DNA of 64,000 nt from Escherichia phage MIZ6, in sequence record OR192075.1; one strand, 5' to 3'. Within the stretch, counting starts at the first letter, position 1; each line of letters begins with the position of its first letter. Of this stretch, positions 1 to 49,135 are shown in pieces. The position numbers and the translations under genes were made by a program. A model generated the notes under the pieces. It saw only the letters and a program-made list of their open reading frames with translations. It ran no database searches and had not been told where the DNA came from.

Positions 1-121
1 CTTCGCTCATGAAAGAGCACTGTTTGCCTATGGTGTAGCGTACACGCTGTAATTTCAGTTTACGGAAGCCTTTAACGTTCAGGTCTTTAGCGATTTTCTT
101 TGCGGTTTCGATGTTAGCCAT
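1..121 (-). CDS. hypothetical protein, partial (C-terminus lies beyond window start)
   Basis: ATG at 121-119 behind AGGAGAATCAAACA RBS and promoter cassette; frame open to window edge. Confidence 0.5.
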   Translation of the reverse strand, partial: MANIETAKKIAKDLNVKGFRKLKLQRVRYTIGKQCSFMSE

Positions 122-161
122 TGTTTGATTCTCCTAAGTGGTATCTCGTCTTGATGGTTGT

Positions 162-191
162 ATTGTAGGGGATCTCCCGATCCCCTGTCAA
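162..191 (-). promoter_or_regulatory. sigma70-like early promoter (-35 TTGACA, -10 TACAAT) with GGGGATC-N4-GATCCCC palindrome in spacer
   Basis: hexamers read on minus strand, about 40 nt upstream of ATG at 121. Confidence 0.5.
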
Positions 192-205
192 CACTTTTTA
201 TAAAA

Positions 206-373
206 TTATTTGTTAATTTCTGGTGCGTTGCTCGGATAGTAACCTTCTTTAACACCAAGATATTTTGCAACCATTCCTACAATCTTCTGTGCTACTACAA
301 TGTCAAATTTCAGATAATCTTCGCCGTGGGTTTCAATGATATATGCTTCACATGCTGCTTTAGTCTCGAACAT
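206..373 (-). CDS. small hypothetical protein (55 aa), paralog of 4524..4691
   Basis: hand-translated ORF (MFETKAACEAYIIETHGEDYLKF...); RBS GGAGAATCAAA; below 60-aa track cutoff. Confidence 0.5.
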   Translation of the reverse strand: MFETKAACEAYIIETHGEDYLKFDIVVAQKIVGMVAKYLGVKEGYYPSNAPEINK

Positions 374-406
374 TTTGATTCTCCTATTTCGTTTCGTTAT
401 GTGTGT

Positions 407-435
407 ATTATAGGGGATCTCCCGATCCCCGTCAA
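407..435 (-). promoter_or_regulatory. sigma70-like early promoter (-35 TTGACG, 17-nt palindromic GATC spacer, -10 TATAAT)
   Basis: rc of attata at 407-412 and cgtcaa at 430-435. Confidence 0.5.
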
Positions 436-448
436 CAACTTTTTAAAA

Positions 449-922
449 TTATTTGCACCAAATTCGAATGATTTCGTCTCGTTCAAATTTTTGCCAGATT
501 ACTCGGTCGCCCGCTGCCATAATACTGACAAATCCAGTTATATTTCCGGTGTACTTGCTTTTAGTTTCTGCATCATATTCAAAGAATGGAGCTTTAAGAT
601 CGCTAAACTCATCTTTTCCCACAAACTTCATAACATGACGGTGTGCGTAATATTCGCTTCTTAGTGTTGTTGTGATAGTTCCGTCATCATTTGATTTCAG
701 ATGCAATTCGGCATCTTCATAAAGACTTGCATCTCGTTGTTTACTTTCGATACCATCATTATATGTTGATTTGGTTGCACTCCAACATTGATATGTCTTA
801 TCTACATTTTCGATCTTTTCCTGTGTCATGTCAAAAAGCGGCGCAACCTTTTTCTTAGCCGCGTGCGCAACGTTGGTCATAGACAGTGCCGCAACAACCG
901 CAATAGCAATAATTTTCTTCAT
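449..922 (-). CDS. secreted hypothetical protein with Sec signal peptide
   Basis: N-terminus MKKIIAIAVVAALSMTNVAHA|AKKK; RBS AGGAGATGA. Confidence 0.6.
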   Translation of the reverse strand: MKKIIAIAVVAALSMTNVAHAAKKKVAPLFDMTQEKIENVDKTYQCWSATKSTYNDGIESKQRDASLYEDAELHLKSNDDGTITTTLRSEYYAHRHVMKFVGKDEFSDLKAPFFEYDAETKSKYTGNITGFVSIMAAGDRVIWQKFERDEIIRIWCK

Positions 923-983
923 AATATCATCTCCTTTGGTTTATATGGCGGGAGTATCTTAGCAATACTCCCTTAATACTATA

Positions 984-1265
984 TTATTCGTGATTAGTTT
1001 CGATGTTGTGCATTTTGCACCAGTTCAGCCAATCGCCCAGATCTTGATAGTTGATGCTTTTATCTGCTGCCATCGTTTTTGTCTTGATACCCATATGTGC
1101 GTTATGAGTAAGCATTTTTACAGTGAACTCAATTTTATCGCCTTTAGCTTTAACATCAACCAGTTTGGTCCACTGGCTACCAGCGCCGCGAATGTTCATG
1201 CCAACGATGTTTCCGATGTATGCTTCTTTGTTTTTCAGGATTTCGGTTGCTTTGATGAATTTCAT
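984..1265 (-). CDS. hypothetical protein
   Basis: ORF behind promoter cassette and GGAGAATCAAA RBS. Confidence 0.55.
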   Translation of the reverse strand: MKFIKATEILKNKEAYIGNIVGMNIRGAGSQWTKLVDVKAKGDKIEFTVKMLTHNAHMGIKTKTMAADKSINYQDLGDWLNWCKMHNIETNHE

Positions 1266-1335
1266 TTTTGATTCTCCAGTTCGTTTCGGTATGGGTGTAT
1301 TATGCTATGTTCTTACTTTGGTGTCAACAACTTTT

Positions 1336-1605
1336 TTAGATATTTTCAGAAATAAATTTTAAAACTTGACGTAAATGTTTCTCATCTTTGATAGTCGCCG
1401 GAAGTTCTTCTTTTACTTCCTGTGCAAGATAGATATTTCCGTTCCAAGTGAAAGATCCGTCTTCGTTTACGCGATAGCTGAACATCCACTCGCAATCATT
1501 TTCGATTTCATATACACACAGAAGGGTGTAATCGTTAAAGCTATTGATTTCAAGGTCGAAGCCGTGACGTTTTGCAAAGTTGGTAGTGGTTTTAGTCAGT
1601 GCCAT
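1336..1605 (-). CDS. hypothetical protein
   Basis: ORF behind promoter cassette; same 5'UTR as gene ending at 121. Confidence 0.55.
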   Translation of the reverse strand: MALTKTTTNFAKRHGFDLEINSFNDYTLLCVYEIENDCEWMFSYRVNEDGSFTWNGNIYLAQEVKEELPATIKDEKHLRQVLKFISENI

Positions 1606-1695
1606 TGTTTGATTCTCCTAAGTGGTATCTCGTTTCGATGGGTGTATTATGCTATACACAGGATCTGGTGTCAACAACTTTTTTAAAAAATAGGC

Positions 1696-1722
1696 AATAA
1701 AAAAGCCGACACTATGGTCGGC
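1696..1722 (-). terminator. rho-independent terminator
   Basis: hairpin GCCGACACTATGGTCGGC followed by T-run on minus strand. Confidence 0.6.
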
Positions 1723-1727
1723 ACATT

Positions 1728-2045
1728 TTAAAAATTCTTGCTATATATGCAAGCCTCATAATCTAGAGGATGACCGCCAATCCTACCAGGCTTAATATTC
1801 CAACCGCATCGATATTTGCTGACCATGCTAACCGTTTCGGTTCTTAGAGCATTTCTTTGCAAATCATACCCCCTAAATTCTTGTCTATAAGGACAGTCCG
1901 CTTTGCAAGTTGGCGGTTCTACGTCATTTAGCGGGTCAGAAGCAGTTGGCTTTATTATCAATTCTTTGTTTGCAATAATCATAAGCACATCCCATTGAAG
2001 GCAATTTAACATCTTCGCAATAAGTGTTGAATCCGTCAAATACAA
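1728..2045 (-). CDS. hypothetical Cys-rich protein (start uncertain; TTG at 2045 or ATG at 2012/1982)
   Basis: ORF track; overlaps upstream gene. Confidence 0.35.
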   Translation of the reverse strand: MYLTDSTLIAKMLNCLQWDVLMIIANKELIIKPTASDPLNDVEPPTCKADCPYRQEFRGYDLQRNALRTETVSMVSKYRCGWNIKPGRIGGHPLDYEACIYSKNF

Positions 2046-2115
2046 TCACTTCGTATTTGACTCCATCGGCGATAGCTTTTACTTTATACCATCCATGCTT
2101 GTATAAAATCTTCAT
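1936..2115 (-). CDS. hypothetical protein (59 aa)
   Basis: ATG at 2115 with GAGGG RBS behind promoter cassette. Confidence 0.45.
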   Translation of the reverse strand: MKILYKHGWYKVKAIADGVKYEVIVFDGFNTYCEDVKLPSMGCAYDYCKQRIDNKANCF

Positions 2116-2200
2116 CTTTATTTCCCTCAATCTCGTTTCGATTGGTGTATTATGCTATAGGCGTGAACTGGTGTCAATGCCTTTTTTTAAAATTTTATGC

Positions 2201-2227
2201 AATAAAAAAGCCGACACTAAGGTCGGC
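2201..2227 (-). terminator. rho-independent terminator
   Basis: hairpin GCCGACACTAAGGTCGGC plus T-run on minus strand. Confidence 0.6.
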
Positions 2228-2235
2228 TAATAAAA

Positions 2236-2544
2236 TCATTTAGACAAATAATCATTCTGTGCAATCCGGTCGGCGTATGCTGGTGTTATGTCAATCGCCA
2301 GCACTTTAACGCGTGCTTTCTTGCGACCTGGGTTTTCTCGTAACCAGTGCTCATGACCGTGAACATTTTTATACTTTGATGCTGTTTCGAAAGTACGGAT
2401 CGGACCTGGGTAATCAGCGTAAAGGATCTCTAGATCTTCGGTGATGTAAAAATATACATCGTAATTGCTGTTCTCTAGCTTAAGCAGAGACTTTCGGAAC
2501 ATTGGGAGATTTTCGCGGGTAAATTCAAAGATATTATCTTTCAT
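2236..2544 (-). CDS. HxHW-family small protein (paralog 1 of 6)
   Basis: motifs YFYITEDLEI, HGHEHW, VLAIDI; RBS GAGGATAA. Confidence 0.6.
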   Translation of the reverse strand: MKDNIFEFTRENLPMFRKSLLKLENSNYDVYFYITEDLEILYADYPGPIRTFETASKYKNVHGHEHWLRENPGRKKARVKVLAIDITPAYADRIAQNDYLSK

Positions 2545-2565
2545 AGTATTATCCTCAATAGTTGG

Positions 2566-2589
2566 ATGAAAAGGGGCGTTAACGCCCCC
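2566..2589 (-). terminator. putative terminator hairpin
   Basis: GGGGCGTTAACGCCCC plus short T-run on minus strand. Confidence 0.45.
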
Positions 2590-2594
2590 ATATA

Positions 2595-2882
2595 TTAAAA
2601 CAGTCCTTCCTGTACACCGTAGTAGAGTTCGTCGCTGATAATTTCATTAATGCGACGGTGTGCATATTCCTGATTTGCGAAGTTGTCAGCAAGTTCTACT
2701 TTAGTTTCGCCGTCATGAGTCCATTTAGTGATAACTTTACCATCTGCAAATTTGAAGTTGAACTCTTTAGCTACTGCATCGCGTACCAGACGTGCAAACT
2801 TATTGTTGCGGATTGCATTGTCGGTTTCGTGTGCAGCGTGAGCAAATTTGTTAACTTTCAGAGTGATAGTGATGTATGCCAT
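2595..2882 (-). CDS. hypothetical protein, paralog family A (with 5887..6198)
   Basis: shared motif AIR..VR.A.AKEFN.K; promoter cassette upstream. Confidence 0.55.
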   Translation of the reverse strand: MAYITITLKVNKFAHAAHETDNAIRNNKFARLVRDAVAKEFNFKFADGKVITKWTHDGETKVELADNFANQEYAHRRINEIISDELYYGVQEGLF

Positions 2883-2963
2883 AATTTGATTCTCCTAGTT
2901 AGAAAGTGTATCTCGTTTCGATGGGTGTATTATGCTATACACCCGATCCGTTGTCAACACTTT

Positions 2964-3242
2964 TTATAAAATAATTTTTTGATATTTTTCTATGATGTTT
3001 GTGTAGGTCACATCAACCGCTAGCACCGTTGCTTCGAATCCACCGTTTAGCCAATGGCTATGGTCATGATCGTGAAAGAAACCAAGACCAGTACGAAGAC
3101 CTTCTTTATATTCGGCGCGTACATTTAGATCATCATCGATAAACAGATAAAACCATGAATTTTTACTAGGATTGATGATACAACCTTTCAGATTAGGGAG
3201 AATATCACGACTAAGAATAAACTTATCACCTACTTTTAGCAT
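2964..3242 (-). CDS. HxHW-family small protein (paralog 2)
   Basis: FYLFIDDDL, HDHDHSHW, VLAVDV; internal ATG at 3242 with RBS GTGAGGAAAA. Confidence 0.55.
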   Translation of the reverse strand: MLKVGDKFILSRDILPNLKGCIINPSKNSWFYLFIDDDLNVRAEYKEGLRTGLGFFHDHDHSHWLNGGFEATVLAVDVTYTNIIEKYQKIIL

Positions 3243-3256
3243 AATATTTTCCTCAC

Positions 3257-3565
3257 TTATAAAGTTTGACCGTTGTTTTTCGCGTAATGCTGAATGCGTG
3301 CTTGATCTGCTTCCGCTGGTGATAGATTCCATGCGATCACTACAACTTCTGACGCATCATGATCATTATCACTTACCCAATGATTATGATTCATACAATT
3401 GTTTGCTATCGCGTGAGAAAATGATCTCATTACCGGAGACGTATAATCATAGTAACGGATTTTCAGATTTTCATCAACGTACAAGTAGATCGTATACGGC
3501 TTATATTCAGTAACCAGTAACAGACAGTTACGCAATTCTGGGAAAATCTTTTTAGTTAATTTCAT
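3257..3565 (-). CDS. HxHW-family small protein (paralog 3, divergent)
   Basis: YLYVDENL, NHNHW, VVIAWN; ATG at 3565 with RBS GAGGATTATAAA. Confidence 0.5.
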   Translation of the reverse strand: MKLTKKIFPELRNCLLLVTEYKPYTIYLYVDENLKIRYYDYTSPVMRSFSHAIANNCMNHNHWVSDNDHDASEVVVIAWNLSPAEADQARIQHYAKNNGQTL

Positions 3566-3566
3566 T

Positions 3567-3797
3567 TTATAATCCTCGGTCGCGGCTATAGTACACGGTA
3601 CGCCATACAATTTCATGTTTCGTGTCGCTCCAGCACACGATCTCATTTACTCTTAAATCTTTGTTATCAACAAAAGATGAACATTGTGACGCTTCTTTCA
3701 TCATTTTATCTGCTGTTTTCTCATCAAATACAGCACAGATTTCTTTATACACTCGATAATCTTTGAATTGACTCTGGATACCCATAATTAACACCAT
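3567..3797 (-). CDS. hypothetical protein, paralog family B (with 3745..4008); start uncertain
   Basis: shared FK.YK.Y..I..V....F.EKMM..AS.C.SF motif. Confidence 0.45.
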   Translation of the reverse strand: MVLIMGIQSQFKDYRVYKEICAVFDEKTADKMMKEASQCSSFVDNKDLRVNEIVCWSDTKHEIVWRTVYYSRDRGL

Positions 3798-4008
3798 TCC
3801 AACCAATTGTTTTTGAGAAAACGTTTATCCACTGTTGAGTGTAGCATGTTTCTTTCCATGATACAATACGAGTAGAATAATGGTTTTTGTTTCCAGAAAA
3901 GGACGGGCATTTTGATGCATCTTCCATCATCTTTTCGGCGAACTCTGGTGCGTATACTCGCAGGATCTGTTGATATGCTTTGTATTCTTTAAATTTGCTC
4001 ATAATCAT
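3745..4008 (-). CDS. hypothetical protein, paralog family B
   Basis: ORF; similarity to 3567..3797 product. Confidence 0.5.
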   Translation of the reverse strand: MIMSKFKEYKAYQQILRVYAPEFAEKMMEDASKCPSFSGNKNHYSTRIVSWKETCYTQQWINVFSKTIGWNGVNYGYPESIQRLSSV

Positions 4009-4267
4009 TCACTACCTTATCAGCTTCTTTTGTTGTTTTTACATCAACTGCGATAACTCGTAAAGGTTCGTCATGGTTCCACCAGTGGTCATGAATATCA
4101 GCTTGTGATTTATCACCAAAGGAATCACGAATATCATTTTTACATTTATAGCTAATGTGACCTTCATAGTCAACATAAAGGTAATTATCGAAAATCGGCG
4201 TTTTTAAGATCATACCGAAAAATCTTTCTTTGTGTGTCTTATCCAGCGTTGCAGTAATTCGCATCAT
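3989..4267 (-). CDS. HxHW-family small protein (paralog 4)
   Basis: YLYVDYEGH, IHDHWW, VIAVDV; RBS AAGAGGAA. Confidence 0.55.
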   Translation of the reverse strand: MMRITATLDKTHKERFFGMILKTPIFDNYLYVDYEGHISYKCKNDIRDSFGDKSQADIHDHWWNHDEPLRVIAVDVKTTKEADKVVNDYEQI

Positions 4268-4279
4268 AATATATTCCTC

Positions 4280-4459
4280 TTAGAAAGGGATGGTCATTTC
4301 TTGAGCTTGTACGTTCTCGTTAGGATTAAACTTCATCCAGCCGATATTGTCTACCAGCATATGCACATTTTTATCATATCCTACGTGGGTAGTCAATACT
4401 GTATGTGCTTTACCTTCAATGATGAGTTCCATGTACTTCTGAACTTCGATAGCTTTCAT
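4280..4459 (-). CDS. small hypothetical protein (59 aa)
   Basis: hand-translated (MKAIEVQKYMELIIEGKAHTV...); promoter cassette and GGAGAATCAAA RBS; not in ORF track. Confidence 0.5.
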   Translation of the reverse strand: MKAIEVQKYMELIIEGKAHTVLTTHVGYDKNVHMLVDNIGWMKFNPNENVQAQEMTIPF

Positions 4460-4523
4460 TTTGATTCTCCGTTTGTTGTCTTGATGGGAGTATCTTACTA
4501 CTCCCTTTAATCATTGTCAACTA

Positions 4524-4691
4524 TTATTTGTTAATTTCTGGTGCGTTGCTCGGATAGTAACCTTCTTTAACACCAAGATATTTTGCAACCATTCCGGTGA
4601 TCTTCTGTGCTACTACGATATCGAATTTCAGGTAGTCTTCACCGTGGTTTGCTACAATGTATGCTTCGCATTCTGCTTTAGTCTGGAACAT
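4524..4691 (-). CDS. small hypothetical protein (55 aa), paralog of 206..373
   Basis: hand-translated (MFQTKAECEAYIVANHGEDYLKF...); about 90 percent identical to 206..373 product. Confidence 0.5.
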   Translation of the reverse strand: MFQTKAECEAYIVANHGEDYLKFDIVVAQKITGMVAKYLGVKEGYYPSNAPEINK

Positions 4692-4757
4692 TTTTGATTC
4701 TCCTATCTCGTTGGTATGTGTGCATTATAGGGGATCACCGATCCCCTGTCAACAACT

Positions 4758-5051
4758 TTATAATGCTTTATATGCGTATTTCATAAATTTGTCTGCCACT
4801 TCATTGGCATGTTCAGATTCTACGCCTGATTCGAGAACAATAGCTAGGTCGGTTTCGTCATTCCCGCCGTACCAATGATTTGATGTTCGATTTTTTTCAA
4901 TTGGAAATTGGTCACTTTTATCTGTGCGACAAAATACATCTAAATGCTCGTCGATGTAAAAGATCCAATCTTCATAAAGAATAACGGTATTAGCCAGATT
5001 TTTATTGCCTTCAACGAAAGGTTCGGCTACAAACAAATTAGTATGTTCCAT
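4758..5051 (-). CDS. HxHW-family small protein (paralog 5, degenerate: single His, NHW)
   Basis: FYIDEHLDV, NHWYGG, LAIVLE; ATG at 5051 with RBS GAGGAAAA. Confidence 0.5.
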   Translation of the reverse strand: MEHTNLFVAEPFVEGNKNLANTVILYEDWIFYIDEHLDVFCRTDKSDQFPIEKNRTSNHWYGGNDETDLAIVLESGVESEHANEVADKFMKYAYKAL

Positions 5052-5067
5052 AGTATTTTCCTCAAAA

Positions 5068-5259
5068 TTATACAGCTTCGTAAACTTCCCAATGTCCAAC
5101 ACCAGCACGCTTAACGAAAAGGTTTTCTTTTATGTTATTCATAAACGTCTGGATGGATTTAATGCGGTTTGAAGGTTTCCATTCTTCGTTGGTATTGCGT
5201 CGATACATCATAACATTACCAGTTCGCTTATATTCAGCAACCATTTTAAGACCACACAT
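5068..5259 (-). CDS. hypothetical protein
   Basis: ATG with RBS GAGGATAA. Confidence 0.5.
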   Translation of the reverse strand: MCGLKMVAEYKRTGNVMMYRRNTNEEWKPSNRIKSIQTFMNNIKENLFVKRAGVGHWEVYEAV

Positions 5260-5315
5260 AATATTATCCTCAATTTGTGGGAGAGTATTACCCTCCCGAT
5301 TATTGTTATACTACA

Positions 5316-5618
5316 TTACGCAAAATGGCGTGTCAATGCTTCTTTTGCTGTTCCGCTAAGATTCTCGATCTCTCCTGGCATAACATCAACCGCAAGAACT
5401 TCTACAACATCCTCTGATCCTAACCAGTGAGTATGACCTTTGTAGAACTTGATATCCCATTTATCGCTATCGCTAGCCCACCACACATCACCGTCGATAA
5501 AGTTGATGTAAAGCACACTACGCCACATTGAATTAATTACTTTCAATACTGCGCCTTTCATCTCTTCCACGGTGTGGTCTTCCATTTTGAAGACCTCACC
5601 TACCTGAACTTTTGCCAT
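5316..5618 (-). CDS. HxHW-family small protein (paralog 6)
   Basis: YINFIDGDV, GHTHW, VLAVDV; RBS GAGAGGTGA. Confidence 0.55.
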   Translation of the reverse strand: MAKVQVGEVFKMEDHTVEEMKGAVLKVINSMWRSVLYINFIDGDVWWASDSDKWDIKFYKGHTHWLGSEDVVEVLAVDVMPGEIENLSGTAKEALTRHFA

Positions 5619-5635
5619 TTAGTCACCTCTCTTTA

Positions 5636-5815
5636 TTACATAACAATCACGCCAGCCGTTGAAAGTTGATGTTTCAACTGAGCATTTTCTGCTACCGTCA
5701 AATCAATGATTTCTTGTGACGCTGCAATCATATAGCCATTGGTGATATTGTTTTGCATCAGTTCAATGGTTTCTTCGTTGTAGCGGATTTTAGCGATGAT
5801 TTCGTTGAAGTTCAT
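5636..5815 (-). CDS. small hypothetical protein (59 aa)
   Basis: internal ATG at 5815 directly behind GGAGAATCAATT RBS and promoter cassette. Confidence 0.5.
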   Translation of the reverse strand: MNFNEIIAKIRYNEETIELMQNNITNGYMIAASQEIIDLTVAENAQLKHQLSTAGVIVM

Positions 5816-5886
5816 AATTGATTCTCCTAGTTCGTTTCGGTATGTGTGTAGTATAGGGGATCGGTGATCCCCTGTCAACAACTTTT

Positions 5887-6198
5887 TTAAAGTTTTTCCA
5901 TGATAACGGTCATAATTACATCTTCTGCGCGAGCGGTCAGATTATCAGCGTCAGCATGTGGGCGGCTGGTTGTTACAGAGATAACACCGTTGCGCACTGG
6001 TTTGATGTTGATATCAAGATGATCCGCGAAACGTTCGCCAGTTACAGAATGAATTTTGGTGTTAAATTCTTTTGCCAGTGCCTTGCGAACTTCACGAATC
6101 AGGGTAGCGTTTTTCAGTTGGTTCTCCGCGCTCATGGTCTTCTGGGTGTTCATGGTTCCGTCGAAGTCAATCATTGGCAGCGTTACGATGTATTTCAT
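5887..6198 (-). CDS. hypothetical protein, paralog family A
   Basis: ATG at 6198 behind GGAGAATCAAAA RBS; similarity to 2595..2882. Confidence 0.55.
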   Translation of the reverse strand: MKYIVTLPMIDFDGTMNTQKTMSAENQLKNATLIREVRKALAKEFNTKIHSVTGERFADHLDINIKPVRNGVISVTTSRPHADADNLTARAEDVIMTVIMEKL

Positions 6199-6284
6199 TT
6201 TTGATTCTCCGTTTAAGAAAGTGTGTTTCGTTTTGATGTGTGTAGTATAGGGGATCACCGATCCCCTGTCAACAACTTTTTGAA

Positions 6285-6761
6285 TTATTTTTCTTGATGC
6301 TCGCGATCGTACTTTTCGAAATAAAATTCTACTGGCTGGTCGTGGATTGACAGCAAGCCAAAGCGTTTAGCCGCTCGCAATCCCATATTGCGCTGAATGT
6401 ACTTCTGGAAGTTCTCGCGTATACACTTACGCCAGTATTCTAAGCCCATACAGCTTTTATAAAGATTGCATTGCACACACGCCGGATTCATGTTATAAAG
6501 TATATCATGCTCCGGTTTATGCATTCCTACAACCTTATATTTCCATGATCCATCATCATTACGGGCAATTCGTCCATTTTCATCATAGACTACCTTTGAG
6601 CGTCGCAATACTGGTTTGATGTGGTCTGCGTGCCAGCGATCCCCTAGTTCCTCGCCACAATAGGCACAACGTCCACCATATTTCATTTTCAGGATCTGGC
6701 GTTGCTCTTTCTTTGACAATTTTTTAGGTTTAGGGGCTTTCGCCCCTTCATTATCACACAT
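6285..6761 (-). CDS. HNH endonuclease (putative homing endonuclease)
   Basis: CAYCGEEL...HADHIKP...CVQCNLYK HNH/zinc-finger motifs; start overlaps ligase stop. Confidence 0.7.
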   Translation of the reverse strand: MCDNEGAKAPKPKKLSKKEQRQILKMKYGGRCAYCGEELGDRWHADHIKPVLRRSKVVYDENGRIARNDDGSWKYKVVGMHKPEHDILYNMNPACVQCNLYKSCMGLEYWRKCIRENFQKYIQRNMGLRAAKRFGLLSIHDQPVEFYFEKYDREHQEK

Positions 6762-8250
6762 CGAATACCTCTTTTACTGTATTTGCAGTGGTCTTGTCGT
6801 AGCGAATACGTTTGATGATTGGGAGAAATAAAGAGAACTCCGGTTCATCTTCTTTACGTGATTTGCTGCGGATATACCCGTTGCATGTCATCTCAATAAC
6901 TTTTCCAATCAGGTTATGACGGTCAGCCCATAACATTTCTCGGTCGAGTTCATTTCGACGATCGAACGGAATTACACGTTCAGTACCATCATCACCTTTT
7001 TCGGTTGTAGTGTCGGTTAATCCCGATCCGGTGTTAGTCATCATTCGTCCGCACGCACTACGGACAGTAAAACCGCCTACCTTATTGGGGTCTTTACTAT
7101 GCGGATATACATCAACAATTTCCGCGTCGAAGTCAATCACTTCTTTAAATTTAACCTGATCTTTACTACGGCGATCTTCAAATACACCATGTAAATTTTT
7201 AAGGATAATACCTTCTAAGCCCATGTTGACATAACGATGATATACTTCGCGAGCTTCATCGATATTGTTAACTACAGTGTTTTCGATGATCTGAACACGA
7301 GGATCGTTAAGTTCTTCAACAATCTGTTTTAGTTCTTCGAATCGATCTTTATATTGCTTCGTTGCTTTCTCGTTTCCGTAATACACATCACGGTCGATAA
7401 CATCCCAGACAGTGTAAACAATACATTGGGCTTCTTCTTTTGGAATAGTTCCTTTAAGTGATTTGTTGAGGATACCATTTCCGGTCTGACGATCTGCAAC
7501 AACGGATTCTTTCACTGCTTCCGCTACTGGCGTTAATGGCATTTCCTCTTCTTCAAATATCCATGACAGAGTACCATCATAAACGCTTTCAACGAAGTTC
7601 TGCGCTGGTGTTTGCGAAAGGGTAGGCATATATACCAATTCGCCATCTAGAACAATTCCACGGCCTCGTAGACGCTCTAAAACCGCAAACAAATCATCAA
7701 GCCCTTGATAGGTATTACCTGAGCGGGTATAGATTGCTAATGTTTCCCCGTCAATATCAGCCATACCACGAGCGCCATCGCTTTTAAGTTGTGCATACGC
7801 CGGATACTTGATATTAGCAATAGTCTTATCAGAACATGACGATGCAAGGTGGCACGGCTGCTGGGGGATCAGTTTCTTCCATACCTTGTTTGCAGTAGTA
7901 GCGGAACAACCACATTCCAGATCACGATTCAGGACCATCATTGCAACTTTAGCATCATCTTCTGACAAGCAAGTCAGAGTATCGGTAACTAGCTGTAATG
8001 CTGCATTACCAGTTACTTGACGCGTGGCAAGTTTATTTTTAAAGACCTGTAATGCACCGGATAAAGACAATACAGACGAATAGCGAGACGGTTTATCGTA
8101 TTTCTTTACGCCAAACGTAACCTGTTTGCAATATGCCAGATAAAAGCATTCTTTCAGCGTTTCATTGCTCGCGGATTCTTTCAGAATCTTTTCTTTCAGC
8201 GATGTTTTGTCTGTTGCTGCAAGCTGATTAATGATATTAAGAATTGACAT
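6754..8250 (-). CDS. 30: ATP-dependent DNA ligase (T4 gp30-like)
   Basis: KxDG adenylation motif (QLKSDGARG); T4 gp30-like length and C-terminus; ATG at 8250 with RBS GAGGTGAAA. Confidence 0.9.
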   Translation of the reverse strand: MSILNIINQLAATDKTSLKEKILKESASNETLKECFYLAYCKQVTFGVKKYDKPSRYSSVLSLSGALQVFKNKLATRQVTGNAALQLVTDTLTCLSEDDAKVAMMVLNRDLECGCSATTANKVWKKLIPQQPCHLASSCSDKTIANIKYPAYAQLKSDGARGMADIDGETLAIYTRSGNTYQGLDDLFAVLERLRGRGIVLDGELVYMPTLSQTPAQNFVESVYDGTLSWIFEEEEMPLTPVAEAVKESVVADRQTGNGILNKSLKGTIPKEEAQCIVYTVWDVIDRDVYYGNEKATKQYKDRFEELKQIVEELNDPRVQIIENTVVNNIDEAREVYHRYVNMGLEGIILKNLHGVFEDRRSKDQVKFKEVIDFDAEIVDVYPHSKDPNKVGGFTVRSACGRMMTNTGSGLTDTTTEKGDDGTERVIPFDRRNELDREMLWADRHNLIGKVIEMTCNGYIRSKSRKEDEPEFSLFLPIIKRIRYDKTTANTVKEVFDV

Positions 8251-14072: not shown

Positions 14073-14142
14073 CTTGGTACTCCTTAGTTGTTTTGGTGTG
14101 GGAGTATCTTACTACTCCCGTGATATGCTGTCAACTGCTTTT

Positions 14143-14292
14143 TTATGCAACCGCAAACATCAACATTTGAACATTCTTGGCTGTCTGGCTTTCAAAGTTC
14201 TGACATTCTTTGATAATGTCCTCTACTTTCTCGCCGGAGATCTCCGCGTAAGTTTCGATTGCCATTTTCAGTACCGCGTCAAAGTTGTTCAT
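14143..14292 (-). CDS. small hypothetical protein (49 aa)
   Basis: hand-translated; GGAGAATCAAA RBS and promoter cassette; not in track. Confidence 0.45.
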   Translation of the reverse strand: MNNFDAVLKMAIETYAEISGEKVEDIIKECQNFESQTAKNVQMLMFAVA

Positions 14293-14361
14293 TTGATTCT
14301 CCTTAAAGTGTATTTCGTTTCGATGGGGGGGTATATTACTACCCCCGTTTCATGCTGTCAA

Positions 14362-14580
14362 CTACTTTTTAATGACAAGTTCGAATTTTGCTACCTTGCG
14401 TCCTCGTTTATTGAAAGCAACCCACGGACGGTTTTCAATGTAGAACAATTCTTCACCAATAATGAATACTGGCTGATTGTAAAGGCGACCCATCAGGTCA
14501 CGCTGGCGAATGGTAGTAGATTCGTATACTTCGCCTACTACAAAGTGTTTGCTGATAGAGTCGGTGCAAGTAAATTTCAT
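14362..14580 (-). CDS. hypothetical protein
   Basis: ORF; promoter cassette. Confidence 0.5.
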   Translation of the reverse strand: MKFTCTDSISKHFVVGEVYESTTIRQRDLMGRLYNQPVFIIGEELFYIENRPWVAFNKRGRKVAKFELVIKK

Positions 14581-14648
14581 TTTGATTCTCCTTTGTTTTC
14601 TTGATGGGAGTATCTTACTACCCCCCGTTATTCAGTGTCAACTACTTT

Positions 14649-14867
14649 TTACTTGTTGTATTCATTCCACCACTGGGTGAGCTTATCAATTATTTTTGTG
14701 TTTCTATCCAACTTCTCCCACCGTTTTCTATGGTTTATCAACCGGAATAGGTAAGGTGTACTTGTTAAGTGAACTCGGTCAATGTAGTGATTGATGTACT
14801 GCTTTTCGATTCTAAGTTTCATCTTTTTACGATGAAAATATGCAATGACTTGTTCTTCTGTTTCCAT
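14649..14867 (-). CDS. hypothetical protein
   Basis: ORF; RBS GGAGGAA; promoter cassette. Confidence 0.5.
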   Translation of the reverse strand: METEEQVIAYFHRKKMKLRIEKQYINHYIDRVHLTSTPYLFRLINHRKRWEKLDRNTKIIDKLTQWWNEYNK

Positions 14868-14927
14868 ATGTTCCTCCGTTTCGATGGGTGCATTATGCTA
14901 TACCCCGATCCGATTGTCAACACCCAA

Positions 14928-14956
14928 TAACAAAAAAGTCGCCACTATGGGCGACT
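14928..14956 (-). terminator. rho-independent terminator
   Basis: hairpin AGTCGCCCATAGTGGCGACT plus T-run on minus strand. Confidence 0.55.
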
Positions 14957-17127: not shown

Positions 17128-17158
17128 AATAAAATCCTCACTTGTTTTTGATGGTTGT

Positions 17159-17187
17159 ATTATAGCGGGGATTTCTCCCCGCGTCAA
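17159..17187 (-). promoter_or_regulatory. sigma70-like promoter (TTGACG, 17-nt palindromic spacer GCGGGGATTTCTCCCCG, TATAAT)
   Basis: hexamers on minus strand just downstream of nrdA stop. Confidence 0.5.
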
Positions 17188-17195
17188 CACTTATT

Positions 17196-19439
17196 TTACA
17201 GCTTGCAAGATGAGCACTCGCTAGAGTCTTCCGTACCATCTGCACCGTCGCGAACGTTCGCATAATACAGGGTTTTCAGACCGTAATATTGAGCAAACAA
17301 CATATCATCTAAAACATCAGCAATATCGACTTTACCCGTCTTATAAGTGCTTGGATCGTAGGATGTGTTGGAACTAATCGCCTGATCTACAAACTTCTGC
17401 ATGATCGCTGCCAGTGTCAGATAAGGCTTGTTACCTTTCTTGATCAGTGTCCAAAGCAGGTCAATAACATCAGCATTATTCTCTACGTTCGGAATAACCT
17501 GATTAAATTGCCCTTCTTTCGATCCTTTAACCGATACAATACCGCGAGGCGGTTCAATACCGTTTGTGCTGTTAGATACCTGAGAAGACGACTCACAAGG
17601 CATCAGAGCCGAAAGCGTACTGTTACGAATGCCATATTTTTTCAGGTCTTCGCGCAGTTCTTCCCAATCCATCTCATATACCGGATCAACCAGTTCATCT
17701 ACTGTCTTTTTGTACCAGTCGATAGGCAGTTCACCGCGACCATAACGTGTTTCGTGCATCAGTTCGCAAGCACCCTTCTCTTTAGCCAGTTGCACACTAG
17801 CCTTAATCAGAGCATATTGCAAGCGTTCAAACGTTTTATGCGTAAACTCGTTAGCGTCTTCATATGTGAAGAAATTATCCGCGAGATACGATGCAAAGTT
17901 AGTCACCCCAACACCCAGAGAGCGACGTTTTTTGGCTGTCAGAGCTTGCTCTACAGGATAATCCTGGTAATCTAACAGGTTGTCAAGTGCACGCACCATA
18001 ACCATAGCAATGCGTTCTACTTCTTCCATATTTTCGATATCAAAGTTTCCTAAAACATATGCTGCCAAAGTACATAGGCTGATCTCTGAATCATCACGAC
18101 CCATCGGTTTTGTAGGCAGAGCAATTTCACAACACAGGTTGGATTGTTTAATCGGTGCTACATTACGAATAAACGCCCCGTGATTGTTCATGTTGTCTGT
18201 GAACGTTGGGTAGATTCGACCAGTGTTAAAACGTTCAATTGCCACCGCTAAAAACAGGTCTTCGGCTTTAACACGAGTTTTACGAACACTCGGATCTTTT
18301 TCCAGTTTTTCGTAAAGCTGGCGGAAACCTTCCTCATCTCGGAAGTATAGATCCCACAACAAGCCACCTGCAACATCTGGACTAAACAGAGTAATGTAAT
18401 CCCGTTTAAGGAATCGCTCTACCATCAGGTTATTAATCTGTACGCCGTAATCAAGATGACGAATGCGGTTATCTTCCACCCCCTTATTGTTCTTTAACAC
18501 AATCAGACTTTCAAACTCTAAATGCCACATTGGGTAATAGAGAGTCGCCGCCCCGCCACGAATACCGCCTTGTGAGCATGACTTAACGGCAGTCTGAAAA
18601 TGTTTCCAGAATGGGATAACGCCAGTATGACGAACTTCACCATGCCCGATCTTAGATCCTTCCGCGCGAATCATGCCAGCGTTGATACCGATACCAGCAC
18701 GCTTGCTAATATACTTGATGATTGCATTTGCTGTTTCGTTGATGCCCTGCAATGAGTCATCACTTTCAATCACCACACACGAACTAAATTGGCGTGTTGG
18801 GGTACGCACACCTGCCATAATCGGAGTAGGCAGAGAGATTTGCTTATTCGCAACAGCATTATAAAAATCAATCACATGTTCAAGTCGATTTTCGGTCTCT
18901 TCTTGATGCAAGCACATACCGATCAGCATATACGCAAATTGCGGTGTTTCGATGATTTTCTTAGTGCTGCGATCCTGAACAAGATATTTCTCTTTTAACT
19001 GCATCGCACCAGCATAGGTCATTTTAAAATCAAGTTTATGGTCGATGAATTTCTCCAGATATTCCACTTCTTCACGGGAATACTTTTGCAGAATTTCGCG
19101 ATCATATTTTCCGATTGCAATATTACGCTCAATATGGCTATAAAAATCAATAGGTTGGAATTGACCGTATACTGATTTACGAAGCGCGAACATTGCAAGG
19201 TTACTTGCTACATATTGATAATCGGGTGTTTCTACCGTGATGTTATCTGCGGCGACCTTAATCAATACTTTCTGGATATCATTGGTAGACATACCTTCTG
19301 TCAGAAGTGGTTCAACCATATCAAACAATTCATATGGATCAACGTTATGACCTTCGGCTGCCGCTTCCAGAATTTTCATTACTTTTTCTTTTTCAAACGG
19401 AACAGTCAGACCGGAAGACTTAACAACATTTTTAATCAT
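17196..19439 (-). CDS. nrdA: ribonucleotide reductase alpha subunit
   Basis: 747 aa, class Ia NrdA-like with C-terminal Cys pair (SSECSSCKL). Confidence 0.92.
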   Translation of the reverse strand: MIKNVVKSSGLTVPFEKEKVMKILEAAAEGHNVDPYELFDMVEPLLTEGMSTNDIQKVLIKVAADNITVETPDYQYVASNLAMFALRKSVYGQFQPIDFYSHIERNIAIGKYDREILQKYSREEVEYLEKFIDHKLDFKMTYAGAMQLKEKYLVQDRSTKKIIETPQFAYMLIGMCLHQEETENRLEHVIDFYNAVANKQISLPTPIMAGVRTPTRQFSSCVVIESDDSLQGINETANAIIKYISKRAGIGINAGMIRAEGSKIGHGEVRHTGVIPFWKHFQTAVKSCSQGGIRGGAATLYYPMWHLEFESLIVLKNNKGVEDNRIRHLDYGVQINNLMVERFLKRDYITLFSPDVAGGLLWDLYFRDEEGFRQLYEKLEKDPSVRKTRVKAEDLFLAVAIERFNTGRIYPTFTDNMNNHGAFIRNVAPIKQSNLCCEIALPTKPMGRDDSEISLCTLAAYVLGNFDIENMEEVERIAMVMVRALDNLLDYQDYPVEQALTAKKRRSLGVGVTNFASYLADNFFTYEDANEFTHKTFERLQYALIKASVQLAKEKGACELMHETRYGRGELPIDWYKKTVDELVDPVYEMDWEELREDLKKYGIRNSTLSALMPCESSSQVSNSTNGIEPPRGIVSVKGSKEGQFNQVIPNVENNADVIDLLWTLIKKGNKPYLTLAAIMQKFVDQAISSNTSYDPSTYKTGKVDIADVLDDMLFAQYYGLKTLYYANVRDGADGTEDSSECSSCKL

Positions 19440-30329: not shown

Positions 30330-31469
30330 ATGACACAAGATATAGAATTACGCAACACTGGAATTAGGTTTGCGCATTTCGACGAAGACTCTGCGACATT
30401 TACCAGCATTTCAGAAAATAACTCTGTGATGTATAAGCTGGAAGTGCGCGGATCTAATGCGGATTCTACCAAACCAGCAAGAATTAGATTTAATGGAGTG
30501 GAGATCGTTGGCACTGGCTATGAAAATGGCCTAAATTTTAAAGTTCTTACTCCAACTGGACAACTACACGAAGAAAAGGTATTCTATGGTCGCGGTGCTG
30601 TTTTGGCAATGCGTGATTATCTTTCTTTGCTGAAAGGTGACTATATCATTGCGATGGCAACGCATGGAGAATTGTTTGCAGATCCGATAAGTGATGTTGT
30701 ATTTTCTAAGATGGGATCTGTATCATTCCCGAATCACATTTTGCTACAGCAAATGCCTCGCGTATCCTATGCAGCAATTTATTCTACTAAAATGGGTAAA
30801 ATTGTGTGCGAAGGGATGCAAGCGACCCACGGGGAAGGACAAGATTCATCTATACAAATTGAGAAGGTTTATGATACTATAGATGATCTTGCTATAACAG
30901 GAACACCACAACGATTTTTAGATTATCCGGTTGAGTATGTTAGCGAAGATGCCGAACATTTCGAGCTAATACAATGGCCTCGTGATGAGACCAGCGCACC
31001 ACTTGAGGATTTTAACATAAAGGCAGGTGACAAACTATCAATATCCTTTGAATTGTTCCGTGATAGTGCCGCAGCCGCAGCCAACGTAACAGCGCGTTTC
31101 TATCACAACTACTTCACCGATGGACAATATCAAACTGGTGTTCGATACAATGCCAGCAAAAAAGACCAATGGGAAAAGTTTGAAGCCGTCTATACCGTAC
31201 CGGAAGGTGTCGATAGTGTAGTAACTGGTTGTATCAGATATCCAACCAACTCCAATGAAGGTATTGTTAAAATTAGAAACATACTAATAACGCCGATCAG
31301 TGGAGTGGTCAAAACTACTGGTCCTACTTCATTTGGTGTTAATGGTGTTAGAACAACTCATATTCAGGATAACGGTGATTTTACTAACCCTGTAATGAGT
31401 CTTCTTAAGCTGCCTAGAGACAATAAACATATCACATCCAACAACTTTAAAGAGTTCGATGTTGATTAA
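30330..31469 (+). CDS. 35: long tail fibre hinge protein (T4 gp35-like)
   Basis: 379 aa (T4 gp35 is 372 aa); position between 34 and 36. Confidence 0.75.
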   Translation: MTQDIELRNTGIRFAHFDEDSATFTSISENNSVMYKLEVRGSNADSTKPARIRFNGVEIVGTGYENGLNFKVLTPTGQLHEEKVFYGRGAVLAMRDYLSLLKGDYIIAMATHGELFADPISDVVFSKMGSVSFPNHILLQQMPRVSYAAIYSTKMGKIVCEGMQATHGEGQDSSIQIEKVYDTIDDLAITGTPQRFLDYPVEYVSEDAEHFELIQWPRDETSAPLEDFNIKAGDKLSISFELFRDSAAAAANVTARFYHNYFTDGQYQTGVRYNASKKDQWEKFEAVYTVPEGVDSVVTGCIRYPTNSNEGIVKIRNILITPISGVVKTTGPTSFGVNGVRTTHIQDNGDFTNPVMSLLKLPRDNKHITSNNFKEFDVD

Positions 31470-31481
31470 CATTTTTAACAA

Positions 31482-31510: not shown

Positions 31511-31515
31511 TACAG

Positions 31516-40040: not shown

Positions 40041-40114
40041 AATATATTCCTCAATGTTTTGTCTTGATGGGAGTATCTTACTACTCCCTTAATCCGGTGT
40101 CAACTACTTTTAAA

Positions 40115-40414
40115 TTATTTTCGCCATTCACCGGAAACAATAAAGTTTGTAAAGTGATCGTGGTCCGTGATAACGTCATTAAGTACCATATGTGGATACA
40201 CTTTAGTGATAATTTTACTAAGTACCATATGCGGATATGCTTTAGTGTAATCACGTTTACGATCAGTCATCCAGCCAACGAAAGTTGGTGCAAAGTACGG
40301 TACACCGTCAGACGATGCCATATTAAACCCTTTATCAACCATAAATGCAGCCGCCCTAAGATTTTTAATTGAAGTAGTGCGACTAATTTCAAAAACTTTA
40401 TCGGTAAAATTCAT
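40115..40414 (-). CDS. hypothetical protein containing internal tandem repeat (KAYPHMVL / KVYPHMVL)
   Basis: ATG at 40414 with G-rich RBS; 39-bp DNA tandem repeat inside. Confidence 0.5.
   Translation of the reverse strand: MNFTDKVFEISRTTSIKNLRAAAFMVDKGFNMASSDGVPYFAPTFVGWMTDRKRDYTKAYPHMVLSKIITKVYPHMVLNDVITDHDHFTNFIVSGEWRK
40181..40255. repeat. about 39-bp direct tandem repeat, 2 copies
   Basis: aagtaccatatg(t/c)ggata(c/t)(a/g)ctttagtg... repeated back to back. Confidence 0.6.
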
Positions 40415-40415
40415 T

Positions 40416-40625
40416 TTAAGCCCCCGCTCGTGCATTAATACGCATTTTCTGCATAGCCATGATCTGGTTTACTGCTTCTTCTTTACGTTCTTGCGTGATA
40501 ACGTGACCAGATTCCGCAAACTCTCCCGCAACTTCTTCTACGATCTCGCGAACTTGAGAACGTCCAAAGATGCGGTTTCCTTCGTAGCTCATAAACTCGG
40601 TTACTACTTGCTCGATAGATTTCAT
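40416..40625 (-). CDS. hypothetical protein
   Basis: promoter cassette and GGAGAATCA RBS. Confidence 0.55.
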   Translation of the reverse strand: MKSIEQVVTEFMSYEGNRIFGRSQVREIVEEVAGEFAESGHVITQERKEEAVNQIMAMQKMRINARAGA

Positions 40626-40691
40626 GTGATTCTCCTTTCGTTTCGGTGTGGGAGTATGTTAATACTCCCATTTCTTTACGTCAACCAGTTT

Positions 40692-40934
40692 TTAGAAATT
40701 TTTCGCTTCTTCTTCGGTCATCATCACCGCGCATTCGTGCATAACTTTGAAAACCGGGTCAATCATATCGAATGCTTCGCTGGACAGTTTACGAGAAGCG
40801 ATTTTGATTGCTTCAACGTCTTCTACTACAGGAACAAAAACAGTTTTCAGTTCGTCGAGCACGGCAGCTTCTTTTTCATTCAGGAAGATCCCAGCGTCGT
40901 ACAGTGCAACTTCGATAACATTAACTTTAACCAT
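40692..40934 (-). CDS. hypothetical acidic protein
   Basis: RBS GGAGGAAATAAA; promoter cassette. Confidence 0.55.
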   Translation of the reverse strand: MVKVNVIEVALYDAGIFLNEKEAAVLDELKTVFVPVVEDVEAIKIASRKLSSEAFDMIDPVFKVMHECAVMMTEEEAKNF

Positions 40935-40973
40935 TTTATTTCCTCCAGTTCGTTTCGGTATGGGAGTATAATA

Positions 40974-41198
40974 CTACCGATGACCTTTGGCGTCAACTGC
41001 TTTTTTATTATTTTCGTGAAAATTTTTCGTCGCCTCATGTGCTTTTCGCTGGGCTTCTTGTTGTGCTTGCTGGCGTGCTGCCTCTTGTGAAGCCATAACG
41101 GAAGCATTTGCAGCAGTTACAGCCGCTACCATCGCTGCGGTATTAGCATTTACAGTACATGCACTAGCCAGCAAAGCAATTGCAATCATTTTCTTCAT
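40974..41198 (-). CDS. small secreted protein or lipoprotein
   Basis: signal peptide MKKMIAIALLASAC; RBS AAAGGGGAAA. Confidence 0.5.
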   Translation of the reverse strand: MKKMIAIALLASACTVNANTAAMVAAVTAANASVMASQEAARQQAQQEAQRKAHEATKNFHENNKKAVDAKGHR

Positions 41199-41365
41199 AG
41201 TTTCCCCTTTAGGTTATCTTCGACCTTCACCCATTCCGCGTATTCTTGCGCGGCTACTTTCGGATTTAGTCCGTCTTCGTACATTGCTTCAAGTAATTCT
41301 TCGTCGGTGGGCTTATACCCTAGATAAGCCTCCACCTGATTTTTCCAAATTTTATACCAGTTCAT
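41195..41365 (-). CDS. small hypothetical protein (56 aa)
   Basis: ATG at 41365 with RBS GGTGA. Confidence 0.45.
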   Translation of the reverse strand: MNWYKIWKNQVEAYLGYKPTDEELLEAMYEDGLNPKVAAQEYAEWVKVEDNLKGKL

Positions 41366-41369
41366 ATTA

Positions 41370-41642
41370 TCACCAGTCAAGAGCGCGTGTCTCTGCGTCT
41401 TCCCATGCTTGATCCATAACAGCCTTGAAAACATATTCTAAAGTATCATCTTTAGAGAATCCGAAGACCTTAGACGGAATATCTTCAATTGCTACTCCCG
41501 CGACTTCTGCATTACGCGCTTGGCAATAATGCAACTCTAAGTTATCGAGATAGCGACCGCCTAATTTCTCCATATCATCCCAGCATTTCCAGTAACCTAC
41601 TTTATTTGCAATCGCTAACACCTTGCTGTTTTCGTTGTTCAT
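41370..41642 (-). CDS. hypothetical protein
   Basis: ATG at 41642 directly behind GGAGAATCAAAG RBS and promoter cassette. Confidence 0.55.
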   Translation of the reverse strand: MNNENSKVLAIANKVGYWKCWDDMEKLGGRYLDNLELHYCQARNAEVAGVAIEDIPSKVFGFSKDDTLEYVFKAVMDQAWEDAETRALDW

Positions 41643-41711
41643 CTTTGATTCTCCTTTTGTTTGGTATGTGTGTATTATGCAATGATGGATTTGTGAAGTC
41701 AACAACTTTTT

Positions 41712-41742
41712 AAAATAAAAAAGCCGACCACACGGATCGGCT
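41712..41742 (-). terminator. rho-independent terminator
   Basis: hairpin AGCCGATCCGTGTGGTCGGCT plus TTTTTTATTTT on minus strand. Confidence 0.6.
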
Positions 41743-49101: not shown

Positions 49102-49135
49102 TATTAAATCCTCATAAAAGAAAAGGGAGACTCCC

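Follow-up and report, generated by a model that had tools for sequence, protein, structure and literature searches.

Repeated early-gene cassettes of Escherichia phage MIZ6 very probably belong to the promoter-early stem-loops described in RB49-like phages

T4-type phages related to RB49 carry short regulatory cassettes, the promoter-early stem-loops (PeSLs), which were described for RB49 and phi1 by Arbiol, Comeau, Kutateladze, Adamia and Krisch in 2010 (PMC2839356) and taken further by Comeau et al. in 2014 (PMC4122927). By the published definition, a PeSL consists of an AT-rich tract with the stop codon of the upstream gene, sigma-70 consensus -35 and -10 elements, a stem-loop, a Shine-Dalgarno sequence and a start codon; the stem-loop occupies one of five possible positions relative to the promoter, most commonly between -35 and -10 or overlapping -10 (PMC2839356). 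About 50 PeSLs are found per genome, mainly in hyperplastic regions and in front of ORFans, and recombination between neighboring PeSLs excises gene cassettes as mini-circles (PMC2839356). Here we report on a repeated promoter unit in a 64,000-nt stretch of Escherichia phage MIZ6 (OR192075.1), referred to throughout as the window. We conclude that this unit is very probably the published PeSL cassette of the RB49-like T4-type phages (Krischvirus). The feature is thus already known and has been characterized experimentally in sister phages at the same loci.

PeSL cassettes between alt and gene 30

BLAST comparison of window positions 1-6600 with phage genomes matched 58 Krischvirus records (RB49-like, Straboviridae). 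Escherichia phage MIZ2 (OR167178.1) is collinear with the window from record position 32001, with 100% identity over 7 kb by direct alignment. An apparent 2-kb insertion in MIZ2 was rejected as an artifact of joining repeated PeSL hits, since direct BLAST gave 100% collinear identity. In the annotation of MIZ2 and RB49, positions 1-6280 hold small genes of hypothetical products, flanked by alt and by the HNH endonuclease/gene 30 ligase. This segment is equivalent to open reading frames ORF190 to ORF210 of RB49, the alt–ligase hyperplastic region, with which it is collinear at 95-96% identity; the genes downstream of the cassettes encode hypothetical proteins of 40-160 aa. An Rfam scan of positions 1-7000 (E ≤ 1) returned no match. 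Just outside the window lies a gene that the MIZ2 and RB49 records label "DNA methyltransferase" (L001:1922-2593; MIZ2 record 30915-31586; RB49p189 orthologue). It had zero matches in Pfam, NCBIfam and PDB sequences (E cutoffs of 0.001, 1 and 1), so neither the annotation nor an identity as Dam is supported by standard profiles.

A first-pass annotation made from the letters of the window had described a conserved promoter unit upstream of 22 minus-strand start codons. The unit is real: all 22 are ATGs, and each is preceded by TTGAC(A/G/T), a spacer of 16-18 nt and a -10-like hexamer. Window-wide, TTGAC-N16-19-TANNAT was observed 40 times (expected, 4.2), 39 of them on the minus strand; a less stringent scan gave 66 minus-strand and 6 plus-strand promoter-like sites, and in a consensus promoter scan the cassette cores matched at 10-12 of 12 positions. 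The leader sequence GGAGAATCAA occurs 14 times, always on the minus strand (expected, 0.23). It is present exactly at 13 of the 22 listed sites, whereas the others have different Shine-Dalgarno contexts, such as GAGGATTATATT.

The same annotation had placed the spacer or -10 of the unit within an inverted repeat (dyad). This applies to most cassettes, where the dyads form stable hairpins (-13 to -21 kcal/mol; z = -2.0 to -5.0 against shuffles). No significant dyad was detected before ATG 1265, 2115, 21989, 22374, 41642 or 55556, the cassettes at ATG 14867 and 40934 have degenerate dyads, and in total the stem is lost or degenerate in about one-third of cassettes. The five GGGGATC-N3-4-GATCCCC copies it had counted are exactly five (Table 1), and the pattern had 0 matches in 100 dinucleotide-preserving shuffles. 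Two details needed correction: the GTGTAT subfamily has CATAAT as its -10 rather than a TAnAAT-like hexamer, and a cassette before ATG 922 (dyad at 950-972, weak -35) was absent from the list.

These cassettes, 60-90 bp between two small early genes, show all the sequence features by which PeSLs are defined. Each feature could be recognized in turn: a near-consensus sigma-70 promoter, with AAAAAG(T)TG before TTGACA and the upstream TAA inside an A/T-rich, UP-like tract; a stable stem-loop, commonly with G-tract/C-tract arms, of the spacer, -10-overlapping or downstream class, as judged by folding and z-scores; and, at the 3′ end, a short conserved leader, a Shine-Dalgarno sequence (GGAG) and the ATG of a small gene, all within a hyperplastic region. 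They are, moreover, orthologous to described RB49/phi1 PeSLs (collinear, 95-96% identity) and associated with indel and replacement breakpoints between related phages. For PeSL206/205, PeSL210/209 and PeSL192/191 of RB49, the promoter core and dyad are the same as in the window, and the rest of the cassette differs slightly; at PeSL206/205 (window 4692-4757), this identity covers the dyad GGGGATCGGTGATCCCC and the promoter core. The window and the RB49/phi1 PeSLs thus share genus, genomic region (ORF190-210), orthologous cassettes, architecture, and the setting of ORFans and indel breakpoints. They differ only at the strain level, in that dyads are swapped at PeSL191/190, PeSL199/198 and PeSL211/210 and ORF211 is absent here.

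The earlier description of the unit as an early promoter plus 5′ untranslated region accordingly agrees with the PeSL early promoters that were tested by experiment in RB49/phi1 (PMC2839356). PeSL206/205 of these phages gave ~13,000 Miller units, a very strong promoter with host RNA polymerase alone, and most of its clones acquired -35 or -10 mutations (PMC2839356), presumably in response to excessive promoter strength. The stem-loop of PeSL211/210, whose orthologue is at window 6199-6284, lowered lacZ expression as much as rrnB T1 did (PMC2839356). Orthologues of ORFan192 (window 449-922) and ORFan210 (5887-6198) were recovered as mini-circles produced by recombination between the flanking PeSLs (PMC2839356).

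Table 1. Cassettes and leader-end motifs in the window (all on the minus strand)
Feature	Position	Promoter and leader	Dyad and position	Class, folding and remarks
PeSL before ATG 121 (RB49 ORF190 orthologue)	122..205	-35 TTGACA 191-186; -10 TACAAT; leader end GGAGAATCAAACA	GGGGATCgggaGATCCCC, 168-185 (GGGGATC copy)	Spacer class, fills spacer; RNA fold -20.7 kcal/mol, z -4.96
PeSL before ATG 373 (ORF191 orthologue)	374..448	TTGACG; TATAAT; GGAGAATCAAA	413-430 (GGGGATC copy)	Spacer class; core identical to RB49 PeSL192/191
PeSL before ATG 922 (ORFan192 orthologue; PeSL193/192 of the 2010 paper)	923..983	Weak -35; -10 TAAGAT	GGGAGTATT/GATACTCCC, 950-972, around -10	-10-overlapping class; z -3.71; RB49 counterpart found
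Cassette before ATG 1265 (ORF193)	1266..1335	TTGACA-17-CATAAT; conserved leader	Absent; 3′ arm ATACACC alone left	Minimum free energy (MFE) -0.5, z +0.55
Cassette before ATG 1605 (ORF194)	1606..1727	Canonical terminator 1705-1722, then promoter; -10 CATAAT	GTGTAT/ATACAC, 6 bp, 1642-1659	Overlaps -10
Cassette before ATG 2115 (ORF196)	2116..2235	Canonical terminator 2209-2228, then TTGACA-17-CATAAT	Lost	
PeSL before ATG 2882 (ORF198)	2883..2963	-10 CATAAT	GGGTGTAT-agcata-ATACACCC, 2923-2944, spans -10	-10-overlapping class; z -2.69
PeSL before ATG 4459 (ORF204)	4460..4523	-10 TAAGAT	GGGAGTA-gtaaga-TACTCCC, 4486-4505, spans -10	-10-overlapping class; z -4.75
PeSL206/205 orthologue before ATG 4691	4692..4757	Perfect TTGACA-17-TATAAT	GGGGATCggtGATCCCC, 4730-4746 (GGGGATC copy)	Spacer class, fills spacer
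Cassette before ATG 5259 (ORF207)	5260..5336	TTGACA-17-TAGTAT within end of upstream ORF	Hairpin GGGAGgGTAatACtCTCCC, 3′ of -10	Downstream positional subclass (5336)
PeSL210/209 orthologue before ATG 5815	5816..5886		GGGGATCaccGATCCCC, 5856-5872 (GGGGATC copy)	Spacer class
PeSL211/210 orthologue before ATG 6198 (ORFan210)	6199..6284		GGGGATCggtGATCCCC, 6250-6266 (GGGGATC copy)	Spacer class
Four PeSLs before ATG 14072, 14292, 14580, 14867	14073..14935		GGGAGTA/TACTCCC; compensatory GGGGGTA/TACCCCC; G:T wobble variant; degenerate GTAT variant	Degenerate variant lies behind a canonical terminator
PeSL before ATG 17127	17128..17202		GCGGGGAgaaaTCCCCGC, without GATC (17187)	Spacer class, fills spacer; z -3.78
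Second cluster, before ATG 40040, 40625, 40934, 41642	40041..41717		GGGAGTA type at ATG 40040 and 40625; degenerate at 40934; none at 41642	
Leader-end motif GGAGAATCAAA, sites 1-6	124-134, 374-384, 1267-1277, 1608-1618, 2885-2895, 4460-4470			
Leader-end motif GGAGAATCAAA, sites 7-12	4693-4703, 6200-6210, 14292-14302, 14581-14591, 41644-41654, 48549-48559			

Stem replacement and cassette exchange between related phages

We compared the dyads of the window with those of five further Krischvirus genomes and two Krischvirus contigs from IMG/VR. The promoter cores of these loci contain at least 31 distinct perfect dyads. Their stems are unrelated in sequence (GGGGATC, GGGGAT, GGGGAG, GCGGGGA, GGGTGTAT, GGGGATAT, GGGAGTA, GGGGGTA, TGGAGTA and others), and the loops, 3-6 nt long, are free in sequence (ggt, acc, atc, ggc, ggga, gcga). 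Some stems form a compensatory series, from GGGAGTA/TACTCCC through GGGGGTA/TACCCCC to TGGAGTA/TACTCCA. At the PeSL199/198 locus, GGGTGTAT..ATACACCC in the window corresponds to GGGGATAT..ATATCCCC in RB49, a difference of two compensatory pairs. At PeSL191/190, the window has GGGGATCgggaGATCCCC, RB49 and G37-3 have GGGGAGgataaCTCCCC, and PHB13 has GGGGAGacaccCTCCCC; the dyad of RB49 and PHB13 is GGGGAG..CTCCCC, and these three phages have 0 GATC sites there. RB49 PeSL211/210 (GGGGATcacgtATCCCC) and PeSL186/185 (GGGGGTCaccGATCCCC) have 1 GATC each. Because orthologous stems have been replaced while pairing was kept, selection appears to maintain the pairing and not a recognition sequence or GATC. 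It would act, then, on base pairing as such.

Gene content changes at the same elements. In alignments of the window with RB49, JK32, PHB13, MIZ4 and G37-3, 32 of 60 breakpoints fell within 30 nt of a PeSL, compared with 8% for random positions; events are shared between genomes in this set, and viable indels are biased to intergenic DNA in any case. The gains and losses are cassette-sized and end at PeSL edges. JK32 lacks 211-982 (ORF191-192) as well as ORF210, and MIZ4 lacks everything up to 982. ORF211, a homologue of an integron ORF (PMC2839356), is present in RB49, PHB13 and G37-3, inserted at window 6292/6301, and absent from MIZ2. In its carriers it lies between the HNH endonuclease gene and the ORF210 PeSL, and the indel abuts the AT-rich edge of that PeSL (window 6285-6301 versus L002 9333-9697).

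Duplication is seen within the window itself. The orthologues of ORF191 and ORF205 (206-373 and 4524-4691) are 55-aa paralogues, 88% identical over 244 nt including the GGGGATC PeSL of each, so that a gene and its PeSL are present here as a duplicate within 4.3 kb. Identity between the leaders of ATG 121 and ATG 1605 is 94% over 48 nt, and this pair is the counterpart of the crossover behind the published 191-194 mini-circle (PMC2839356). Shared sequence of 60-100 bp would supply homology to phage recombination for the gain, loss and duplication of cassettes. One further relation concerns a whole hairpin: the dyad GGGGATCggtGATCCCC at 4730-4746 and 6250-6266 (loop GGT) recurs in exact reverse complement as GGGGATCaccGATCCCC at 5856-5872 (loop ACC), and the same relation is present in RB49. 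An inverted hairpin of this kind may have arisen when the template was switched at an extruded DNA hairpin.

Function of the stems

The near-consensus sigma-70 promoter (GTTGACA, 17 nt, TATAAT-like) would drive each small early gene. We infer that transcription of a cassette starts at the A after CCC, ~7 nt past the -10; the early-promoter consensus predicted for RB49 has C at -3 to -1 and is reported to be consistent with mapped 5′ ends (Nolan et al., PMC1524935). In the spacer class, the entire dyad lies between -35 and -10, and in the -10 class the discriminator (ACTCCC or ACACCC) serves as the 3′ arm. Since the stem precedes the site at which the cassette's own transcript starts, that transcript cannot fold into the hairpin, which we infer to be present only in RNA reading through from the upstream gene. 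There it would insulate against or attenuate upstream transcription, leaving the cassette's own mRNA unaffected, which fits the published insulator/attenuator role. In the spacer class, the -10 hexamer (UAUAAU) would double as a weak U/A tail. The first-pass annotation had set its own proposals for the dyads against an explanation as shared terminator hairpins, and it is the latter that the literature favors at one locus, where the stem-loop orthologous to 6250-6266 is a terminator/attenuator.

Several observations qualify this reading of the stems. The promoter-embedded dyads are followed by no T-run (their tails are TATAATGC, TATACTAC and ATCAAGAC) and hence are not canonical intrinsic terminators, of which they have the G/C-rich hairpin and lack the T(U) run right after the stem. 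A consensus intrinsic-terminator scan (≥5 T in 8) called 0 of them, and the same scan did call the canonical terminators upstream of ATG 1605 and ATG 2115. Efficient termination is documented for one stem-loop only, in a reporter construct (PMC2839356). Among imperfect dyads, G:T wobbles on the sense strand, as expected of an RNA hairpin rather than a double-stranded palindrome, outnumber A:C mismatches by 7 to 4, a nonsignificant difference (p = 0.27). A strong dyad tends to be lacking where a separate canonical terminator is present (4 of 5 cassettes, compared with 12 of 26 where there is none), in line with expectation but not significantly (p = 0.33). The stems thus resemble Rho-independent terminators in having a G/C-rich stem of 6-9 bp, a loop of 3-6 nt and a position at the end of the upstream cistron, and one orthologue cuts read-through like rrnB T1. 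They differ in the missing T-run, the tail being instead the -10 hexamer (TATAAT or TATACT) or the discriminator/start region.

With the T-run missing, the stems may alternatively act in part as 3′-end stabilizers or pause sites. In its full form, that the hairpins work mainly after transcription, as stabilizers or exonuclease barriers for the upstream cistron or as pause or processing sites and not as true terminators, we regard this alternative as tentative and somewhat unlikely, although it is compatible with PeSL identity and differs in the role of the stem alone. It draws on the failure of the stems to follow the canonical pattern, including class-B (-10 class) stems with tails AUCAAGAC or AUCGAAAC, and on the separate canonical terminator that lies just upstream in five cassettes, a sign that the dyad alone may not always suffice. 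Against it stands the PeSL211/210 stem-loop, the single one tested, which cut lacZ like rrnB T1; a drop in a lacZ reporter cannot, however, tell termination from destabilization. A role as DNA, in which hairpins or cruciforms are recognized by a structure- or sequence-specific recombination protein that targets cassette exchange, was raised by Arbiol et al. themselves (PMC2839356) and would account for the clustering of breakpoints at PeSLs, for one published RB49 mini-circle crossover that falls inside the loop (PMC2839356), and for the inversion of the 5856-5872 dyad relative to those at 4730 and 6250, a change typical of template switching, or of inversion, at a hairpin that has been extruded. 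We nevertheless consider it doubtful: no dedicated recombinase has been identified, the other published crossovers lie between -10 and Shine-Dalgarno sequence or in the AT-rich tract, as plain homologous recombination predicts, and T4-type recombination requires <50 bp of homology (PMC2839356).

The two proposals that the first-pass annotation had drawn from the dyads, repressor operators and Dam-methylation control, found little footing in the comparison across Krischvirus genomes. Perfect palindromes over the spacer or -10 do occupy the classic place of an operator at which a host or phage repressor dimer could shut off early transcription, symmetric (compensatory) changes would suit a symmetric protein site as well, and Arbiol et al. 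speculated about protein binding to GGGG...CCCC, though for recombination (PMC2839356). A single conserved palindrome with fixed spacing and a fixed place in the promoter was not what we found. The 31 perfect dyads have unrelated stems at differing positions relative to -35 and -10, so that one sequence-specific repressor cannot read them all; one stem has been exchanged for another at orthologous cassettes; and loop length and sequence vary freely, which means that half-site spacing is not conserved. About one-third of cassettes have no dyad, and in uninfected E. coli the promoter of PeSL206/205 shows very strong constitutive activity (PMC2839356). An operator function is therefore very unlikely. 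The idea that the GGGGATC...GATCCCC subfamily is a class of Dam-methylation- or SeqA-sensitive promoters fares no better, and we judge it highly improbable. In its favor are five strong promoters with two spacer GATC sites 7-8 bp apart, a roughly 3-fold enrichment of GATC in cassette cores (14 in ~900 nt, in copies that are paralogous and not independent), and the frequent occurrence of one GATC in class-B spacers. Yet GATC is not conserved at orthologous promoters, where one or both sites are lost (0 or 1 remaining), and the sites are confined to the spacer, outside the -35 and -10 hexamers, rather than overlapping contacted elements. In the window as a whole, GATC is neither over- nor underrepresented (347 observed, 342.5 expected; ratio, 1.01). 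In class B, moreover, the GAT of GATC is part of the extended stem, pairing with ATC at the transcript start, and the adjacent "DNA methyltransferase" gene has no detectable methyltransferase signature.

The leader end, related layouts and implications

The conserved leader of the cassettes ends in GGAGAATCAAA, which matches the strong-site consensus of T4 RegB/S1, GGAGRAYARAA, at 10 of 11 positions and occurs at 12 sites (Table 1). Across the window, the consensus was matched 16 times at ≤1 mismatch, a modest excess over chance (9.9 ± 3.2). The cleavage consensus, GG*AGRAYARAA, was derived from T4, and RB49 is reported to carry a divergent regB (PMC3014915). From this match, GGAGAATCAAA is probably also a RegB/S1 cleavage site through which these early mRNAs would later be inactivated; the candidate cut in the leader would be GG^AGAATCAAA, and the match suggests a shared post-transcriptional shut-off of PeSL-driven mRNAs. 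The T4 sites have in common with the cassettes GGAG as the Shine-Dalgarno sequence of early genes and an A-rich tract after it. The consensus is nonetheless that of T4, whereas RB49 has a divergent RegB, and the window motif has C in place of A at position 8; the resemblance is one of sequence and not of tested membership. No regB was found among the annotated genes of the inspected part of the window, and the PeSL paper never mentions RegB (PMC2839356). Indeed, the PeSL papers comment on neither GATC, RegB nor the inverted loop, which are observations made on the window; the RegB-consensus match of GGAGAATCAAA and the dyad that is the exact reverse complement of two others are thus additions to the published description. 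We propose, as speculation that we hold to be unlikely as a whole, two extra layers of control, in which GGAGAATCAAA serves as a RegB/S1 site and the GGGGATC...GATCCCC stems are extruded as DNA hairpins in vivo. Extrusion is hinted at by the exact inversion of the 5856-5872 element.

Promoters and hairpins are also combined in other ways. At 49101-49178 on the minus strand, the promoter TTGACA-16-TATAAT overlaps a canonical terminator: its -10 is looped out by a 13-bp stem (AAGGGAGATTCTC / GGGAGTCTCCCTT; MFE, -21 kcal/mol; z = -4.8), and TTTTCTTTT comes after the hairpin. At 56122-56184 and 61107-61194, on the same strand, promoter-like sites have the hairpin of a canonical terminator immediately after them, within the leader (GCCTCC..GGAGGCTTTTTT and GGGGC..GCCCCTTTTT). 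At 56184, a start ~7 nt past the -10 would lie in the 5′ arm, so that only upstream read-through would be terminated; at 61194, the hairpin starts ~17 nt past the -10.

Beyond Krischvirus, IMG/VR contigs unrelated to the genus share the layout of GTTGACA, a spacer-filling GGGG...CCCC dyad and a -10 (TAnnnT), some of them repeated across contigs (loci L006, L008, L010, L012, L016, L018, L022-L026, L028 and L033; for example, GGGGAGATTATCTCCCC, GGGGCTTTCATCGGCCCC and GGGGATGAACAATCCCC). The outer 4 bp of pairing were imposed by the search pattern and the inner pairing was not. The presence of the layout in these contigs points to a compact promoter/hairpin fusion as a recurrent phage design. Lambdoid "morons" and integron gene cassettes are comparable: they too are small accessory genes that come with a promoter and terminator of their own and enter or leave genomes as units. 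PeSLs differ from both in that the regulatory sequence itself is the recombination substrate, with no integrase or attC site, and in that all PeSL cassettes are co-oriented with the flanking early genes.

If the two extra layers exist, the RegB layer would place all PeSL-driven ORFans under one post-transcriptional shut-off, and promoters with extruded stems could respond to supercoiling, Dam/SeqA state or a structure-specific protein. The PeSL mechanism itself was established from 2010 to 2014 in the same genomic region of sister phages, and the window is a further, strain-level instance of it. What the window contributes is comparative evidence for selection on base pairing, as opposed to a protein-binding or GATC sequence, together with a possible link to RegB. 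PeSLs let T4-type phages acquire, lose and duplicate small accessory genes while the transcription of neighboring genes stays undisturbed.

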